64,000 nucleotides of DNA, from contig MU057651.1 of NCBI GenBank assembly GCA_013265495.1, forward strand, positions 2,582,948 to 2,646,947. Reading direction: 5' to 3'. The translations under genes were made by a program, and so were the position numbers. The DNA comes from Vicugna vicugna (taxonomy: Eukaryota). Shown here in pieces: positions 1 through 43,537 of the stretch; position 1 is the first letter of the stretch; every line of letters begins with the position of its first letter. The notes under the pieces are model-generated. The model saw nothing but the letters and a program-made list of their open reading frames with translations, was not told the DNA's origin and made no database searches.

Positions 1-2864
1 TTACGGATTTTCTCTAGCTTCTTCAAAAGTATTTTTGAACACTTTTGTATCTTTTCTATCCAAAAGAGAAAATATAATTTTCTACTGATATAAGTTACAA
101 ATTTTTTTTTTTTTTGAGGTCTAGTCAGTCTACAATGTTGTGTCGGTTTCCAGCACCATGCTTCAGTCACACATGCATCTTATCTTGGCTTGCTTCAGTG
201 GACTGGGTTTAGGACCGAATTCTCTGGATCCCTTCACTCCCACGGTTCACGGTTTCACAATCTCACACGTCACATCCAATAGTTATGTTCTTAGTATGTA
301 CCGGAGTGATTTAACAGGGTAACATTAAAATTAAGATTTTTTTTTCCCTTCCTTGGAAACTGGTTTTTAAGGAGGTGAGCATTTGACGTGCACAATCTCC
401 CCAGGGCCACACTTCAAACTTGGCCCCAGCAGCCCCCCGAGAGCTCCTCCCAGGACAGGTGCCCGGCAGCATCCTTTGGGGGCAGTGGCGGCCCTCCAGC
501 CTCGCCAGCCCGGGGCCCAGGCACCGTGTGTGCGCCCAGGTTAGACTCCAGGCAGGACAGGAGAGGGTGCCTGGAGAGGCGGCCCCAGTAGCGGGACAGA
601 GCTGGGTCCCCCCCAGCCCATCGGCCCCATCCGGGAGAGCCAAGACGTACCCGGGGCTCAAGAGAGATGTCACATGCTGTATTTGCCCTTCATCCAAAAT
701 AGGCACATCCTCTCCGGCACAGCTCAGCTCTGCAGCTACAAAACCCCTGAGCAGGAAGGATGCCGTCCCACGCTCTGAAGTCCATACCCCGCCCCAAAAT
801 TTAAAAAACAAACAAACACCCAGAGACCACAGCTGGGGGCTGACCCACCAGCTGGGGAAGTGACGTGTGGGGAAGACTTCACCGCTGTTCACAGGGCGCA
901 CTTAACAACCCCCCCAGGTAGCTGCGCAAAAAGCTCTACCCAAACCAATTAGACAGACCGAATGGGGGCGCGGAAACACGAGGCTGCGAGGGGTGCAGAT
1001 TCAATTACGAGACCTTCCTGCCGTGGGGTCTTGAGCCGTCAGCAGTACAGACGCCCACGGGAACCCAGCCCTGCGGGGTCGTTGGGGAAACACTGCATCG
1101 CTCCCTTCCTGTTTGATCCACTCAGGAGCCCTTCGCAGCCTGAGGTCTCCCAGCCGCAGGGACCCCCCCCTTCCCCCGGAGGAAGCTGCCGAGCATCACA
1201 GCAGAACATCCATCAGGCCGACGGAGAATCTGCAGAAACTGGTACAGTGAGGTCTCCCCATATGTCTCCTCGAGGTTCCCCTCTCCATCTGCCCCAGCTG
1301 CTCCGTCCCATCCTCATCCTCTGTCCCTGTCTGTCTACGGGTCAGTGGGCCCCTGACCCCTCGCTGCGTGGTTCCTGAAGACAGGAACAGTCTCTTTCCT
1401 CAGCACAGCCGAGGGTCAAGATCGGGAAATCCCGTGGACACACCACCACCGGCGGATTTACAGGTCCCATCCCATCCAGCCCCTGTCCAACTAGGGTCCT
1501 TCTAAGAGCAGGCGGCAGAGGCCCTTCTGGGTTCAGGATCCCTTCGGGGACCCCTTCAGCTATCTCACCTGCTTGGCCTCTGTCAGCTGGACAGCATCTC
1601 CGATTTGGCTGTCCTGTGGTTTTGTTTTCTGGGTGTGGGATGTGGAGACGCATGCCCGGGACCCTGCCGGCCACTGTGACTGGGACACTCCCTCGGGGGT
1701 CACCCTTCCGGAGCGGGGACCATGGGAAGGTGGAGCTGTGCTGCAGAGCTGACGGGCGCACCCCGGGTCTGCGGCCCGACGCCACTCTCATGCCGAGGTC
1801 CGCACCGCAATCCATCCCCATAGCCCCACTTCGATCCCTGAGCTGCACGTGGAACAGCATGGGGAACCTGACATGCAGGTGGTCCAGAGTCTCCTCCTTC
1901 TCCTCTGTGGGCACCACAAGGGACACATCTGGAAACAGTCCTGGGACAGCCAGAGACTGCCAAGGCCACTGCAAGGCGTCCAGATCCAAGAGGCTGCATG
2001 TTCAACCACTGAGACAGGACAGGGCCAGGAGGGCTCTCCCGTGTCCCCCCCCACAGCCCCTGTCCCTTGCTGTCCCTGCAGCTGAGCGCCTGGGCAGGGA
2101 GGGCCACCCCCGCTGGGGGACAGCAGGCTTCCAAAGCCACTGTGTGCTGCCTTCACAGACGGAGACACATGACGTTGCATCTACTTGGACTGGAAGCGGA
2201 TGATAAGATACAGAGGGGACTGGAGTAAACTAGGGGTGCGTGGAGACAGCGCCAGTGTCTCTGACTCGGGCCTGTGTGAAGTTGGCGCTCAGGGCCACCC
2301 CTGCCCTCCCCGGCTCCGGCTGCAGGGCGAGAGATGCTTTCTGCAAAGGTGCCGCCCGTGACCGACATGCTCTCCCATCTGTACCCGAGAAGGGTTTTCT
2401 CGACAAAACCGAACCCCAAGAATCCCAGGGTCTACAAATGGGATGCCAGGAAACGGTTGCTCTGATTCACAAGAGTCCCTGTGCTGAGATCACAAGGCGG
2501 GAGCCATTTGGGGCGAGGAAAAAAAAAAGCCATATTAGTCATTAGGGTTTGGTTCTCCATCGAGGGCCAAAAATAAATTTACCAGCAGAGGCTGTCCACT
2601 TAGAGCTGTTCCAAACGGGGCCACGTCTGTGTTCTTTTTTTCCTAGAAATGCCGAACTTGGCTGCAAGGCATCTGGCGGGGTGGGGGGAGGATGTTTACT
2701 GAACTCTCTCTGAAGACACCCAAGACGCAACATGCTGCACTTGGTTTCCTCCACTGAGTCTTACTCTTCTGTTTTTAAAAACACTCAAATTGCTTTTTCT
2801 TCTTGCTTATTAGGAGACTGAGGTGAGAACCCAAGAAAAGAACAGAAACGCTATGGAGAGATCC

Positions 2865-3215
2865 AAAATAGATAGACAGCAAGGTCCTGCTGTGGGGGAG
2901 CTTGGGGACCCACATTCAGTTCCTCGTAACAGCCCATAATGAAAAAGATTATGAAAAGGAACATATACAGGTATATACATGTAACTGATTCACTGTGCCG
3001 GACCCCAGAAATTAACACAACAGGGAAAACGGACAATTCTTCAGTTAAAAACAAAAAATCAGTAACCGAGGTCCTGCCGTATAGTAATCTCCTGTAACAA
3101 GCCACGGGAAAAAGTGTACGCCTACATAAAAGTGAATCACTCTGCTGTACATCGGGAATTGACCCAACATCGTAAATTAACTACCTCAATAAATTTTTTT
3201 TTTTTAATAAAAGAA
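2865..3215 (+). mobile_element. Two head-to-tail LINE-1 3' end fragments
   Basis: Both 2865-3058 and 3068-3215 align by eye to the L1 tail at 45940-46110 (aaggtcct...tgaatcact.tgctgtac...gaaatt.acacaac...A tail). Confidence 0.75.
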
Positions 3216-5165
3216 AAGCTACGGATGGAGGGAGAAGCAGACTCCAGGCAGGCAGGTGCCATGCGGGACAGGAAGGGGAGGCCGGGGCTGCAGGCCTGGA
3301 CTGGGGCGTGGGGGGCCGGCCGGAGCGGGTGTAGACACCGCAGAAAGGCCACGGCCGGCCGCGGGGACGCTGTATGGGAGCTTCTGGTTAGCGTCCTTCA
3401 TGACTGTGGGAAAGCTTGGACCCAGCTGGGAGCCGGCAGGGTGGCCACAGCACGAAACCCCTTCCACCAAGACTGAAAGGTCTGGTAGATCCTTTCCAAC
3501 CTCTTAATTTCGTAACACTTTGCCTTAAATTGCAGGGACATGACACACGGAGAGACCACAGAATGGAACTGAAGTCCCCTCGTGACTGTGCACCGGCTTT
3601 GGCAAAAGCACAGACATGCAGGTCCGGGCATGGGATGAGCTGTGGTCTGAACCACGGACACAGGCAGAAATGCGGGTGTGCCGTCTCGTGCATTTAAGAC
3701 ACTGCCAGGAACGGTAATCCGGCCAGAAGTTCACCTGCTGGTTCTTCACCTTTTCCTAAAGAAACGTCAAGTCGGGGCACCTGTAAGAATGAGCAGGTTA
3801 GGCGCTGGGCGAGGTGGGAGGTTTCCTCTAATGAGGCCACATGTCACCGCGGCCTCGGTCCCTCCCCGAGTGGCTCTGCGCTCTCTCGCTTTATGGGCAA
3901 AGCCAGAGCTAAATGCCAACCAGCAGGCTCGGGTTTGCAAATATTAAGAAATAAACGAACCGCGGTTGTTTTAGCATTTATATAATGCAATGAGAGACAC
4001 AGAAAAGCCAGGAAGACAGACGACCCTGAAACATGATGTGTGAGCTGGGGCCGGGCAGGGCGGGGCCAAGGCGGGGACGTGGGGACAGCATCGCAGGGGA
4101 CAGGGCGGAGCCAGGACGCCAGATCCAGGGCTGGGCCGTGTTTGAGGGCCCCCCCACCGTGTCCAGTGTCCACTTTTCCACCACTTTGGAGCTCCTGACG
4201 GGACACTGACGACAGCTGCCCCCATCACGGTCTGCCCCCGAGACTGGACGGGCAGTTCGAGGCTGCCCAGCTCTGGTACCCGCGGCACAAAGGGAACGCA
4301 CAGTCGGGGAGGTGAGAAGTCCGATGGACCAAGATCCATCGCTCTGAGTCAGGCAGGAAACCATGAGGGACACCAGTTTCCCCAGCAGCGCCGAGGGCAC
4401 GCACCCTCCTGGGCGCCGGTCCCAGCGGGCTGGGGGAATCCGAGCGACAGAAGGCAGACGCCGATTTGATGTTCTTGTGGGAAGCGAACGCCCATCCCAA
4501 GAAAAACATCAGGCAGGATTCCTGGGTTCCCTGATTCTGTTCACAGTGTCCGACAGCCCAAGGGGGAGGAGGCCGGGCTTCGTGCCAACGGCTGTGAGAG
4601 CCAGGGAACATTTCCACGGTCTTATTTTAGGATGGGTAACGCTGTAAACAACCCCGGTGCCCAGGCCGCAGACGGCTCGTCTAGACCCTGATGTGAAGCA
4701 GAAGGTCACCAGGGAGGCAGACAGCCCAGATGTGCTCGGCCCATGTGACCAGGGCTGAGGCCCGGCCAGCGCTGGCTCCCGGACAGGGACACTCGCCTCA
4801 CCTCCCGGGTGCTGAAGCTGGGACACCGCCGCCTGCGCCGGGGCATGAGGTCAGGGCGCCAGCAGCTGCTGGGGAGCTGGCGAGCGGGAGGAGACACGTG
4901 TCCCCGCCAAGGGCGCCCACCCCGTGAGGTTACCAGAGAAAGAGGGTTTGCGGCTGATCGAGCCTCGAGGACATCAAAGGCAGAAAAGTCAAGGGAGTGG
5001 AGGGGAGTGATGCTGGCAGAGGTGCTTGCTGGAGACAAAGAATGCAAGGTCCCAGGAAGGGCCAAGTTTTGTGGCTAAAATCACAGGTGCCAGATCTGGA
5101 TGTCAGGTCCCCCTTCCCCTCGGTCCCCAGCCCCTGGCTCACATCTCAGCTCCACTGCTCATACC

Positions 5166-33741: not shown

Positions 33742-33832
33742 CTTGGTGGTTGGCGAGCCGCTCGGACTGCGCCGGGAAGGCCGGTCCTGCCAGACTCTGC
33801 GGCCGGTGAGGCGATGTCTGCTCCACCTGGTC
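33742..33832 (-). CDS. GRB10: GRB10 coding exon 2 (DQVEQTSPHRPQSLAGPAFPAQSERLANHQ + 1 nt)
   Basis: Similar to human [29 protein letters not shown]. Acceptor cctgcccttttccag|GAC, donor AAG|GTAAGG. 91 nt, phase 0 to phase 1, compatible with both neighbours. Confidence 0.95.
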
Positions 33833-34017
33833 CTGGAAAAGGGCAGGAGCAGACGGGCTCTGTTCAGAAGCAGCAGTTCACACCTGTCCCAGCCACCAGC
33901 CCCCGGCCTCCTTTCTTCCCCGATGTCCTAACTTCTTCTCGTTTATTTAACTTTTCAGTTTCAGATGATAGTTGTTTAAAATATGCTATAAAAGGGAAGC
34001 TAATCTTGAAAAGGTAT

Positions 34018-34314
34018 AACCTTTGTTGTTTATCTGTTTTATATACATATGTTAGTTAGTATCTGCAAATCCCGAACTCCCAATTTATCCCTTCTCACTC
34101 TCTATCTCCCCTGGTACCTGTAATTTTGTTTTCTACATCTATGTTTACTGTACAGCACAGGGAACTATATTCAATACCTCGTGACAGCCTATAATCAAAA
34201 AGAATATGAAAAGAAAAAAAAATATATATATATGTATAACTGAATCACAATGCTGTATACCAGAAACTAACACAACACTGTAAATCAATTACACTTCAAT
34301 AAAAAAAGAAAAAA
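34018..34314 (+). mobile_element. 5'-inverted (twin-primed) L1 3' end
   Basis: 34018-34146 is the reverse complement of the segment that directly precedes 34147-34314 in the uninverted copy at about 45835-46110. A tail at about 34300-34314. Confidence 0.85.
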
Positions 34315-35439
34315 CAGGGACCTTGAAGAAAAGTTACTCCTGTTTTGTTTTTGGTTTTTTTTTTTTAGCTTAAGTTGCTTCCCCTGAATGGCAATTCAAA
34401 ATGAGTTATCGTCAAGTGCAGGATTTAAGCAATGAGTACAAGTAATGAGCCTTTGCGGGAGCACCTGCCTTTTCTGTGACGATGACTGGGAATCACGCCC
34501 GAGGCGGTCTGCTATCTGGTAGGAAACACCTAGAGAATATTTCATAATCGGGTCCCCCCACAAAGCGTCAGGTGCTTAGTGATATTTTTTTAGACCTCAG
34601 GGTGAGGACAAAAATTTGAGGCAGAAGTTAAAACAGTAATATTGCAGCCAAGCGCACAACTCCAGAAAACCACCTTCGTGGGTTTATAGTTGAGCCCGTG
34701 AAAGATGTATTAAAATGTGGGAGAAGACGGACATGACAAGCCGACAGCTAACATCGCACTCAACGGTGAAAAGCTGAAAGAAAGCCTTTCCTCTTAGATC
34801 AGGAACAAGACAAGGGTGCCCTCTCTCGCTTTTGTTCAACACAGTATTGGAAGCACTAGCCAGAGCAATTAGGCAAGAAAAAGAAATAAAAGGCATCCAC
34901 ACTGGAAAGCAAAATGTAAAACTGTCTGCAGATGATGTGGAATTATATACAGAAAACCCTGCAGACACCATCAAAAAACTGTCAGAACTAAACAATGAAT
35001 TCAGTAAGTTGCAGGGACAAAATCAGTGGTATTTCCATACACTAAAAATGAACTATCAGAAAGAGAAATAAAGAACATAATCTCATTTACAATTGCATCA
35101 AAAAGAATAAAATACTGAGGGATAAATGTAACCAAGGAGATGGAAGGCCAGTGTACCAAGAACAATAAGACATCACTGAAAGAAATGGAAGATGCAAATA
35201 AACGGAAGATATCTCATGCTCATGGATTAGAAGAATCAATATTGTTAGAGTGTCCGTATTACCCAAAGCAATCTACAGGCTCAACGCAATCCCTATCAAA
35301 GTTCCCATGCCATTTTTCAAAAGAATTGAGCAAATAATCCTAAAATTTGTGCATGGAACCATGAAAAGCCTGAAGAGCCAAAGCAACCTTGAGAAGGAAG
35401 AACCAAGCTAGAGGCATCACATTTCCTGGTTTCCAACCG

Positions 35440-35769
35440 CAGTGGCTTCCATATCTGTGGGTTCCACGTCCAATCATTCAACAACTCTGGATCGAAAATA
35501 TTTGAATAAAAAAAAATTCCAAAAAGCAAAGGAACTGCCACACACCACCAGGGTAGCACATTTCTGCTGTATTTCCAACTGCTTGGATACTGTTTATATT
35601 ATAGTACGTATTGCAAGTAATCTAGAGATGATTCAAAGTATATGGAAGGATGCATGTAGATTATATGCAAATGCTCCACTGCTTTACATAAGGGACTTGA
35701 GCATGTGCAGATTTTGGTATCTAATGGGGGTTCTGAACCTGTTTCTCCCTGGATGCCGACGGATAACGG
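35440..35769. mobile_element. MER2/Tigger3-like non-autonomous Tc1/mariner DNA transposon inside the L1
   Basis: Characteristic aagtaatctagagatgatt...tatatgcaaat...aagggacttgagcat...gattttggtatc. Degenerate terminal inverted repeats, TA on the right side, and L1 sequence resumes across it. Confidence 0.85.
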
Positions 35770-35806
35770 TATATTACAAAGCCACAGAAATTAAAATAGC
35801 GTGGTA

Positions 35807-35954
35807 TTCTGGGTCGGGGTTTCGTACGTAGCAGAGCAGCTCCCTCGCTGCGATCTATTGAAAGTCAGCCCTTGACACAAGGGTTTGTAAAAAAAACAAA
35901 AGAAACAAATATTAATTTTAAAACAAAAATGAAAAAAAATACAAAAGAAAAAAG
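35807..35954 (+). pseudogene. Retroposed 3' end of 28S rRNA (about 80 nt, 35807-35888) with A-rich tail; SINE28-like
   Basis: ttctgggtcggggtttcgtacgtagcagagcagctccctcgctgcgatctattgaaagtcagcccttgacacaagggtttgt is recognisable as the mammalian 28S 3' terminus. A-rich tail 35889-35954. Perfect TSD aaaatagcgtggtatt at 35793-35808 and 35955-35970. Confidence 0.95.
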
Positions 35955-37203
35955 AAAATAGCGTGGTATTGGTATAAAAACAGACACACAGATTACTGGA
36001 GCAAAACAAAGAAACCCATACGCATTTGGTCAATTATTTACAACAAAGGAGCCAAGAATATGTGATGGGGAAGACGGTCTCTTCGATAAATGATATTGGG
36101 GGAAACCAGACAGCTACATGCAAAGGAAGGAAACTCAACCACCTCTTACATCACATGCAAAAAAATGAACTCAACATGGATTAAGGACTTGAACATAAGA
36201 CCTGAAATCATAAAACTCCTCGAGGAAGCCACAGATGGTACGCTTCTCAACACAGGTCTCGGGGATGCTTTTTGGAATCTGAAGTCGAAAGCAAAAATCA
36301 ACAAGTTGGAATACGTTATCCTAAAAAGCTCTGCACAGCAAAGGAAACTGTCAACAAAGTGAAAAGGTACTTACTGAATGGAATAAAATAAAATACCTGA
36401 AAATCGTGTATCTGATAAGGGGCCAATACCCGAACTTATATATAAAGAACTTACTGCAACTCAAAAAAAAAAAAAATCCTGTAAAAACTGAGCAGGCACA
36501 CTGAATAGACATTTTTCCTAAGAAAACATACAGATGGCCACCAGGTACACGGAAGGATATTCAACATCACTAACAAGCAGAGAAATAAATGCAAATCAGG
36601 ACAATGAGGTGTCACCTCACACCTATGAGGATGACCTGTCATAAGGACAGGAAGTGAACAAGGGTTGGCGAGGCCGTGGAGAATGGAAGCCGTTGTGCAC
36701 CGTGCGTTGGTGGGAATGCAAGCTGGCGCTGCCACTGTTGGAAACAGGATGGAGGTGCCTCAGAAAGTTAAAAACAAGAGTTACCCTATGACCCAGCAAT
36801 CCCACTCCTGGGCATCTCAAAAAAATGAGAATACTAATTTGAAATGATCCACCCACCCCCATGTTCATTGCAGTATTATTCACAAAAGCCAGGATATGGG
36901 AGCAACCTATGGGGTCCCTCTGCCACCAGTCCTGCAAAGTCCTCAAACATCAGAGACCCTGATAAATTTTGCAAGCCCAGGACTCCACAGTTCGCCTGCT
37001 GCAAGGGCTGCAAAATGCGCCCCCGGCCCCAAATGGAAATACACCCACTGCAAATGACCTAGATCCACTTTGTGCCCCCAATATGACAGTCTACTAGTTT
37101 ATTCTATTCAAGGACGCAGAGAACAAGAGGTAAGCATCAAACTGACCCCAAAAGCAAACCACAAACCAGGCTTCCGCTGGGTCCAGGAACCTCCCCCTGA
37201 GCG

Positions 37204-37922
37204 TGTCGACGAAAAAATTAATCAGTAGTCGATCTGAGAGAGAAATGGACATTTTTATTCGAGCCAACGTGAGTATGATAAGAACCCAGGAGACGGTCTT
37301 TCAGAAAGTCCAGAGGACGGTTCCACTGGTCAGAGACCCTGGCATGGTTATATGAGGCTGTGAGACGGAAGAGTTGTACGTCCGGTGATGGATTCGTGAC
37401 AGTCACGCGGTCCAGGTCTACACGTACAAACTGAGCGGTGGGTCACGCTCATCACGGCCCCTCCCGAGATCAAGAAGGAAGGTTATCTCCTAAGAAGGTC
37501 TGGTTGGAGCAGAAACAAGACACACCGGACAGGGGAGCGAGGGGGCCCCAAAGGGGCAAAGAAAATTATGTTCAAGCATGTCTTGCCCTCAAATATGAAT
37601 TTTATTTCATCCGGAGGAAGGAAAAACTCACCATGCCCGCCCCCCACTGAACCAAAGGCTGAGAGCAACACCTTCTATTTCCAGGCTCCTGAGAGCCCAC
37701 ACGGGAACATCTGGGCCATCTGGTCAGAGGAAGTACCAAAGAATCTTTCCTCCAAAATAGCCAGATGCCGCCCAGCCACGTCCTTCCTCCTCGTCCGCAC
37801 AGGGGTTCTGCGTGCCTGACTCGACCCTGCCCCAGACCTGCCCATCTCTCCAGCCCCAGAAGGGAAACATCAACTCTTTCTGTGTTTGAGGGCGTCTATC
37901 CAGCCCCTGGTCCTTAACTACA
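37204..37922 (-). mobile_element. ERV1-like solo LTR, same orientation as GRB10
   Basis: Minus strand begins TGTAGTTAAGG and ends TTTTTTCGTCGACA. AATAAA at 37259-37254 near the 3' end; TATA-like catataa near 37350. Confidence 0.65.
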
Positions 37923-38765
37923 GGTGTACATCAGAACTAAATAACCCCGGGAGAGGGCACACCCTGACCAGGTCTCCCAGCCAGGTCTGGACGAGGGACC
38001 GCAGAGACCAGGTTTTGCCGTCGGTCAGAGGGACAGTGAGTGGGAACCGCCCCCCTCCACCGGTCTGTGTCTCAGCAGCCGGGGGAAGGTGGGGGAATTC
38101 CTGCCAAAGATGATTTCCGTGTCTGAGAAAAGGAACGGAATCGCTCAAGTCGGTGCAGTCATAACTGACACGACACGTGACGCCACGAGCATCCTTCTTC
38201 GTGGGCACAGGGTTCCCCGTGCCCTGGACCTGACCGTCCGTTCCTGCCTCCCGAGGAGGTGGAAGGAGTCCCAGAGTCATTACCTTGTCGACTTTAAGCC
38301 CAACGGGTGGTAAAAAGCAGTCATCAAGTCGGTGTGTGTCCCGGTCGCCCTCTGGGGGCCACGGAGCTGTCTGGACGTGGCCGGGGAGCCCCAGGTCACC
38401 GGTCTGCACCGAAGCCCAGGGGTTGGACCAGATCGGGGCAGACTTGCGGGGGCGGCCAGGGTGCCAGGGACTCCTCCCTCCCCTCCTGGGAGACACCCGG
38501 TGAGTCAGAGCCAGGCAGCCCCTTCTCAAGGGCCGGGTCACACGGCTGTGGATGTGGGTGTGCGACACCAGGCACCCTGCCCCTGCCCGGGGGACGCACG
38601 ACATCACGGCCCGTTTAAATGATGACTGGCCGGGAGGGGCTGCTGGGAGCTTGACCGAGCAGCAGAAGCAGGATGGGAGGGCCCACGAGTCCCACCACCC
38701 ACCCGGCTGGCCCTCCCTTGTGAAAAGGAGATGAACAGAGACCCTACAGCCACGTGTGCTAACGC

Positions 38766-43486: not shown

Positions 43487-43537
43487 CTGGTAGTAAGGAT
43501 GGTGCAAGAAGGAGTCTGGACAGCCAGCTACAGCCAT
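43487..43537 (-). CDS. GRB10: GRB10 first coding exon, coding part (MAVAGCPDSFLHHPYYQ); whole exon probably 43487-43581
   Basis: Translation matches the human GRB10 N-terminus MALAGCPDSFLHHPYYQ as I recall it. ATG at 43537-43535, donor CAG|GTACGG after 43487, acceptor tccttattccag|G before 43581. 51 coding nt, ends in phase 0. Confidence 0.95.

Follow-up and report, generated by a model that had tools for sequence, protein, structure and literature searches.

How does a short piece of ribosomal RNA sequence come to lie in an intron of a protein-coding gene, and from what template would it have been copied? This question is raised by a locus in Vicugna vicugna (assembly GCA_013265495.1). We analyzed a stretch of 64,000 nucleotides of contig MU057651.1 (positions 2,582,948 to 2,646,947, or C600:2582948-2646947 in our contig numbering), referred to here as the window, and searched the genome (2.03 Gb in 12,405 contigs) for related sequences. 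Positions given below are those of the window unless a contig is named.

Structure of the insert and its target site

The insert, its target site and the two neighboring exons are composed as follows.

33742..33832, minus strand: second coding exon of GRB10 (AG acceptor 33834-33833, GT donor 33741-33740), with a translation identical to protein model P0002
35765..35792, plus strand: left part of the interrupted host interspersed repeat; paralogue alignments of this flank begin at about 35765
35791..35796, no strand assigned: TT/AAAA target nick site of the L1 endonuclease-type consensus, seen in the sequence
35793..35808, plus strand: 5' copy of the 16-nt target-site duplication (TSD), from the sequence and a repeat search; single in paralogues of the host repeat
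35807..35888, plus strand: retrocopied 3'-terminal 82 nt of 28S rRNA (Rfam RF02543; 81 of 82 positions identical to rDNA locus L003)
35889..35954, plus strand: A-rich heteropolymeric tail of 66 nt, 74% A (9 T, 4 G, 4 C), seen in the sequence
35955..35970, plus strand: 3' copy of the 16-nt TSD, from the sequence and a repeat search
35971..36390, plus strand: right part of the host interspersed repeat (4341 first-look candidates, 40 scored matches)
43487..43537, minus strand: first coding exon of GRB10 (ATG 43537-43535, GT donor 43486-43485), matched by tblastn to residues 1-17 of P0002 at 100%

The identity of the insert was assessed with the Rfam model of the eukaryotic large-subunit (LSU) rRNA. 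RF02543 matched a 121-nt query over model positions 3291-3401 of 3401 with 37.2 bits (E 5.2e-08). The gathering score of 50 was not reached, which is to be expected when only 80 nt of a 3.4-kb model are present. When positions 34000-38000 were scanned, nothing was found at E<=1, and the same model matched once only the 121 nt were given; the miss in the 4-kb scan is taken to be a filter effect. Comparison with the genome's own rDNA end (L003) revealed that the sole difference is a C-to-T change in a CpG, at position 67 of 82. Past the motif GTTTGT, the rDNA locus runs into GC-rich spacer, while the window copy has its tail there. Both the end of the model and the comparison with rDNA indicate that the copied RNA part ends at the mature 28S 3' terminus. 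Folding of the 82 nt as RNA gave no independent structure signal, since 40 of 200 shuffled sequences folded equally well (z = -0.81).

Two identical 16-nt direct repeats, aaaatagcgtggtatt, enclose the insert (35793-35808 and 35955-35970; repeat family D4, spacing 162). By chance, such a repeat is expected at a frequency of ~1e-5 (~4.5e4 position pairs within 300 nt, multiplied by 4^-16). The bases tt precede the first copy, so that the site reads aatt/aaaa at 35789-35796. TT/AAAA is the type of nick consensus used by the L1 endonuclease, and the bottom-strand T run at this site would prime on the A-rich tail. At the other end, the 28S part is unambiguous over 80 nt from 35809, since its first 2 nt (TT) are common to the TSD. 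In rDNA and in longer copies of the family, the bases before CTGGG are likewise TT, the last 2 bases of the 5' repeat, indicating 2 nt of microhomology at the 5' junction.

Both flanks belong to one interspersed repeat, which looks L1 ORF2-like. It is old and very abundant, as the 39 scored paralogues besides the window's own locus are 70-77% identical to it. We aligned the left flank (ending with the first TSD copy) and the right flank (starting with the second) separately to 11 paralogues. The two alignments overlapped by exactly 16 nt on 4 of the 11 (L045, L047, L052 and L053), and on the other paralogues the overlap was within 2-4 nt of 16. The 16-nt target is single in these paralogues, which serve as a proxy for the empty site, indicating that the target was one 16-nt stretch that was later duplicated. 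With the paralogues standing in for the empty allele, a single target that became duplicated would fit the prediction of target-primed reverse transcription. The insertion lies in an AT-rich patch of nested repeats, and another repeat ends at ~35770, directly upstream of the host element. The window as a whole is GC-rich (53.3%) and contains 366 N.

An origin at the DNA level, that is, an rDNA orphon captured at a break, a segmental duplication or an assembly chimera, has to be weighed at this point. Long internal 28S fragments without a tail do occur in this genome, and one of them is duplicated 2.9 kb apart on contig C7947. The insert described here, however, ends exactly at the mature rRNA end where L003 runs on into spacer, carries a tail, is bounded by a perfect TSD at a TT/AAAA site and is flanked on both sides by one continuous host repeat. 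Taken together, these features effectively refute a DNA-level origin. The insert is almost certainly an L1-type retrocopy of the 28S 3' end.

To place the insertion in the gene, GRB10 exons were located by targeted family searches instead of from the window's list of 897 open reading frames. The insertion is antisense to the gene and falls within the intron that separates the first two coding exons (9.65 kb), at a distance of 1.96 kb upstream of exon two. The translations of both exons are identical to the alpaca GRB10 protein model P0002. Protein mapping placed further exons of P0002 at 11353-11132 and 6293-6150 (minus strand). Below the window, and on the same strand, follow an exon of the RA domain (C600:2573761-2573907) and one of the BPS domain (C600:2556692-2556817). 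Compared with solved structures, the RA exon scored best with human GRB10 (PDB 3hk0_A, 90.5 bits; GRB7 62, GRB14 53.4), and in a protein database it was closest to GRB10 of three camelids (dromedary, alpaca and Bactrian camel, 98%), followed by proteins at 89%. One of the 4 camelid GRB10 models, P0001, maps differently at its N-terminus. Two more minus-strand segments of the window match camelid GRB10: 50573-50728 matches residues 31-82 of the Bactrian isoform X1 at 92%, and 14702-14770 matches residues 9-31 of a dromedary model at 87%. These matches suggest alternative first exons in the 5' region of GRB10.

The first-pass annotation of this DNA had described a 28S 3' end with one CpG transition, inserted antisense into a GRB10 intron with a complete target-primed signature (A tail, perfect 16-bp TSD, TT/AAAA site at 35791-35796 and 2 nt of microhomology at the 5' junction). 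The match of RF02543 to the last model position and the rDNA comparison bear out the first two points, the sequence, the repeat search and the longer copies the signature, and the two flanking minus-strand exons, with their splice signals and protein matches, the location.

Independent copies or a SINE lineage

For a census of the genome we used an 82-nt query, which gave 72 first-look candidates; 40 were scored, and all 40 matched. These 40 scored matches comprise one rDNA locus (L003) and 39 dispersed 28S 3'-end copies, so that the genome contains at least 39. An internal 28S control segment of equal length gave only 4 candidates and 4 matches, indicating that the bias towards the 3' end is at least ten-fold. 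A census with the Rfam LSU model was unusable (4 of 2519 candidates scored, 6 matches listed), and the equal-length DNA queries were used instead.

In all 39 dispersed copies scored, A-rich sequence starts no more than 5 nt from the rRNA end. Measured from the 28S 3' end, the 39 copies are 70 to over 431 nt long. Lengths were determined against a young long copy, L002, which is identical to rDNA over the 110 readable nt of L003; L031 on contig C7947 was dropped as coordinate reference, as it is without a 3' terminus. When up to 2 mismatches were allowed, 17 of 38 assessable copies had a TSD of 12 nt or longer. They often begin with AAAA, AGAA or AAAG after T-rich bases, and nick-type sites (tt/aaaa, tt/agaa, tt/aaag, at/aaga) precede the TSDs of several other copies. 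Ten of the 39 copies, the window copy and L002 itself included, are at least 97.5% identical to L002 over the whole aligned length.

Two side observations were made in this census. L004 and L005 (C2939:2194903-2194983 and 2196231-2196312, minus strand) lie only 1.3 kb apart on the same strand. Both are young (99-100% identical to the reference), and their different lengths (178 and 235 nt), tails and TSDs (17 and 12 nt) indicate independent insertions; the chance expectation of such a pair is 0.001-0.004, given about 40-70 copies in 2 Gb. The second concerns the fragments on C7947 (2759758-2760853, covered by L031, and 2762661-2763596), which lie in non-rDNA context. By local alignment they correspond to about 2135-3399 of the Rfam LSU model, with up to 844 bits, and stop in a GC-rich expansion segment. 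The lack of a tail and a 3' terminus points to an orphon-like origin different from that of the tailed copies.

A rival possibility is that the template was the transcript of a genomic 28S-derived master, read by pol III as a SINE28 element in the way proposed by Longo et al. 2015 (PMC4994717), and that the window copy belongs to a self-propagating SINE lineage. Pol III-dependent nascent SINE28 transcripts are described for human cells (PMC4994717), and small groups of old copies in our set share changes: L020, L033 and L036 have 31T, 40T and 67T in common (two of them also 65T), and T52C is common to L025, L030, L032, L040 and L041. Either an old variant of the rRNA or limited spread from copy to copy may account for these shared changes. 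Among the young copies, the pattern differs. All of them, the window copy included, match rDNA completely or almost completely, and the ten young copies have no common non-CpG change, their changes being either private or in CpGs. The recurrent variants in the last 82 nt all fall at six CpGs (39 scored copies), and the C67T of the window copy recurs in 13 of 39 copies that otherwise differ. Furthermore, 5' ends vary from copy to copy over the whole range of lengths, the tails have no common pattern, and the entire promoter would have to fit inside an 80-nt copy. Over all sites, 32 of the 39 copies are closer to another copy than to rDNA, and 18 of 39 over non-CpG sites, a comparison that speaks neither for nor against a master, being confounded by the fact that the nearest neighbor is nearly always a young rDNA-identical copy or a shorter one.

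This star-like pattern favors repeated derivation from rRNA over a master SINE, in agreement with the frequent re-derivation of such elements stated in PMC4994717. As the only change in the window copy is a recurrent CpG transition, an independent retropseudogene is favored over membership of a SINE subfamily. We consider a SINE28 master as the source of the window copy improbable, while a minor copy-to-copy contribution to the family as a whole is conceivable.

The same CpG positions bear on the age of the insertion. Across the family, 112 substitutions fall in the 12 CpG columns and 99 in the 70 other columns, and this excess in CpG columns indicates neutral decay of methylated DNA. The window copy itself has 0 changes in 70 non-CpG columns, 0 in the 32 TSD positions and 1 in 12 CpG positions. 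When CpG positions are weighted by the 6.6-fold excess of the family, this corresponds to one change in about 180 site-equivalents. Taking about 1.5e-9 changes per site and year as the neutral rate in mammals, we infer that the insertion occurred some 4 million years ago (Poisson range ~0.1-20 million years). Had the copy been present since the cetartiodactyl radiation, about 16 changes would be expected. This rough estimate from divergence would speak for an insertion restricted to the lineage. Judged by its sequence, the window copy is young, and it appears to be without evident function and to decay neutrally.

The initial reading had supposed a fairly young copy, and this is supported, as the TSD has no mutation and the 82 nt differ from rDNA by a single CpG change. 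It had also proposed to count copies by a 28S search of the genome, which yielded at least 39 A-tailed 3'-end copies, and had named the sharing of diagnostic positions as what separates a SINE family from independent retropseudogenes. The young copies share no non-CpG change, which favors the latter.

Tails, 5' ends and the nature of the template

The first-pass annotation had recorded a degenerate A tail of roughly 65 nt. Its extent was correct (66 nt, 74% A), whereas degeneration of an original poly(A) is unlikely. Non-A bases are frequent even in the eight youngest TSD-bounded copies (L001, L004-L008, L010 and L014), namely 82 in 402 tail nt (45 T, 20 G, 17 C). The 28S parts of these eight differ from the reference by at most 2.5%, and their tails are 5-28% non-A. 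The non-A content of tails did not rise with the divergence of the copies (Spearman rho 0.28, p = 0.27). In copies identical to rDNA the tails are mixed to the same degree, and so the tail of the window copy has probably not arisen by decay of a poly(A). Young tails look mixed at birth or extremely fast-evolving, unlike slowly decayed poly(A).

The T residues in the tails are clustered, with 12 runs of at least 3 T compared to 2.0 +/- 1.5 in shuffled tails (0 of 2000 shuffles reached this number). Some pol III SINEs have A/T-rich tails with T runs, and on this point the tails speak for the SINE28 master discussed above. Regular patterns were also seen, as with the (AAAC)n of L007 and the (AAAT)n of L008, and slippage of such mutated units explains part of the clustering and mixing of T. 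For the window copy, a tail with only 74% A and with T runs is unlike a fresh canonical poly(A), which counts against the account preferred below.

A stable poly(A) tail is not known at the mature 28S 3' end. A rival reading is that the rRNA was never adenylated, and that the L1 reverse transcriptase began on the poly(A) of L1 or another RNA and then switched template to the 3' end of a nearby 28S rRNA, giving a chimera that lacks an L1 body and has only tail sequence 3' of the 28S part. Such a switch would dispense with tailing of the mature 28S 3' end, and it agrees with a junction at, or at most 5 nt short of, this end in 39 of 39 scored copies. In all 30 copies inspected, however, no recognizable non-tail sequence was found between the 28S end and the flank. 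Moreover, in the description of 28S/L1 chimeras, chimeric 28S pieces mostly start near position 3636, whereas non-chimeric ones come from the 3' end (10.1101/2025.02.02.635956). A switch inside the tail leaves the same product, so sequence alone barely separates both models. Weighing these points, we regard the template switch as unlikely, and a tail already present on the RNA before priming as the preferred reading.

The 5' ends of the copies give a further hint. Nine of the 39 copies (L010, L023, L028, L026, L041, L033, L014, L032 and the window copy) start 70-86 nt from the 28S end, and three of them (L010, L023 and L028) exactly at -75. Under an exponential truncation null about 4.8 copies are expected in this bin, so that in this genome alone the nine found are no clear enrichment. 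In the human SINE28 table, 5 of 27 loci start at LSU 4958-4963, and human tails are given there as AT-rich, T-rich or (T)n (PMC4994717). The same 5' boundary is thus seen in a camelid and in human, two mammalian orders, and lies near the base of the terminal hairpin. It is this repetition across species that makes the clustering of 5' ends notable. Clustered 5' ends in camelid and human, ~20% non-A in young tails and mixed tails in human could be explained if the short 28S retrocopies, the window copy included, were not truncated at random but stemmed from one discrete and conserved piece of ~70-86 nt at the rRNA 3' terminus, the terminal hairpin region, which received a mixed A/U-rich tail before capture by L1. 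We offer this explanation tentatively, and the odds at present are against it.

Proposed insertion mechanism and comparison with known elements

Considering all of these observations, the window copy is best explained as a retrocopy, dead on arrival, of the 80-82 nt at the end of mature 28S rRNA, mobilized in trans by L1. In this account, the LINE-1 machinery would act in trans on a 3' fragment of rRNA with an A-rich tail. Its endonuclease would nick the bottom strand at TT/AAAA in the old repeat of GRB10 intron 1, after which reverse transcription on the tail would be primed by the T run. Synthesis would then cross the terminal hairpin region of 28S and stop about 80 nt in, the 5' end would be joined via the 2 nt of microhomology, and second-strand cleavage staggered by 16 nt would give rise to the TSD. 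We infer L1 as the enzyme from the insertion signature alone, and likewise rRNA itself, instead of the transcript of another genomic copy, as the template and a tail on the RNA before priming; a source copy of rRNA-identical sequence is indistinguishable from rRNA as template. With these steps included, we assign the whole account a probability of about 0.75.

Copies of U6, 7SL, Y RNA and tRNA, as well as processed pseudogenes, resemble this locus in target-primed reverse transcription in trans, tail, TSD, TT/AAAA site and 5' truncation. The small-RNA copies differ in their template, which in our case is a fragment of a pol I transcript. Closer in this respect are the classical 28S rRNA retropseudogenes, reportedly found by Wang et al. 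in 1997 and Munro et al. in 1986, which are also L1-type processed copies of a pol I transcript.

The initial annotation had pointed to SINE28-type retroelements in mammals, and these are indeed described (Longo et al. 2015, PMC4994717). SINE28 elements are tailed 3'-LSU fragments, in human 65-437 bp long and flanked by TSDs of 5-28 bp at nick sites of the L1 type; the L1-type nick consensus is likewise used in Table 1 of that paper. Some loci are embedded in other transposable elements, and SINE28 was present in all mammals examined there and frequently re-derived from LSU rRNA in each lineage (PMC4994717). A review from 2024 also lists SINE28 (PMC10946416). The locus in GRB10 is alike in being a 28S 3'-end fragment (82 nt), in the A- or AT-rich tail directly after the rRNA end, in its TSD (16 nt) and L1-type nick site, in its embedding in another transposable element, and in its short size class, which recurs in human (5 of 27 loci) and in this genome (9 of 39 copies). 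It therefore has the structure by which SINE28 elements are recognized in PMC4994717, namely a 3'-LSU fragment under about 500-700 bp with a tail, a TSD and an endonuclease site. The difference lies in element-to-element spread, as the change in the window copy is recurrent, 5' ends vary and tails are unrelated. In addition, the published loci compared here are human, whereas ours is camelid, and SINE status in the strict sense adds pol III transcription from an internal promoter (PMC4994717). In the main text of that paper the word alpaca occurs 0 times, and the titles of the SINE28 literature found name no camelid.

More recently, 28S rRNA has been reported to integrate as pseudogenes through L1, with genomic 28S insertions coming mostly from the 3' end, and 28S/L1 chimeras have been described (10.1101/2025.02.02.635956). 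The chimeras share with the window copy a 28S piece mobilized by L1 enzymes and a TSD. Unlike the window copy, in which the tail follows the 28S part directly, they have an L1 segment 3' of the 28S part inside one TSD, and their 28S pieces often start near position 3636. The L1-like sequence flanking the window copy lies outside the TSD and represents the split target, not a co-inserted segment.

In sum, this 28S 3'-end retrocopy is ordinary and of recent insertion, and its kind has already been published (PMC4994717). As one more neutral retrocopy in an intron and in an older repeat, it matters little in itself. If an empty allele exists, it would provide a clean, homoplasy-free presence/absence marker for camelid phylogeny and population work. 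Its estimated age would also place activity of L1 enzymes in this lineage within about the past few million years. Adenylated 28S fragments with a full 3' end are not explained by known decay pathways according to PMC4994717. If the short copies do derive from a discrete tailed fragment, as tentatively proposed above, they would record a conserved cleavage-and-tailing step of rRNA in the mammalian germ line, beyond the known decay pathways.
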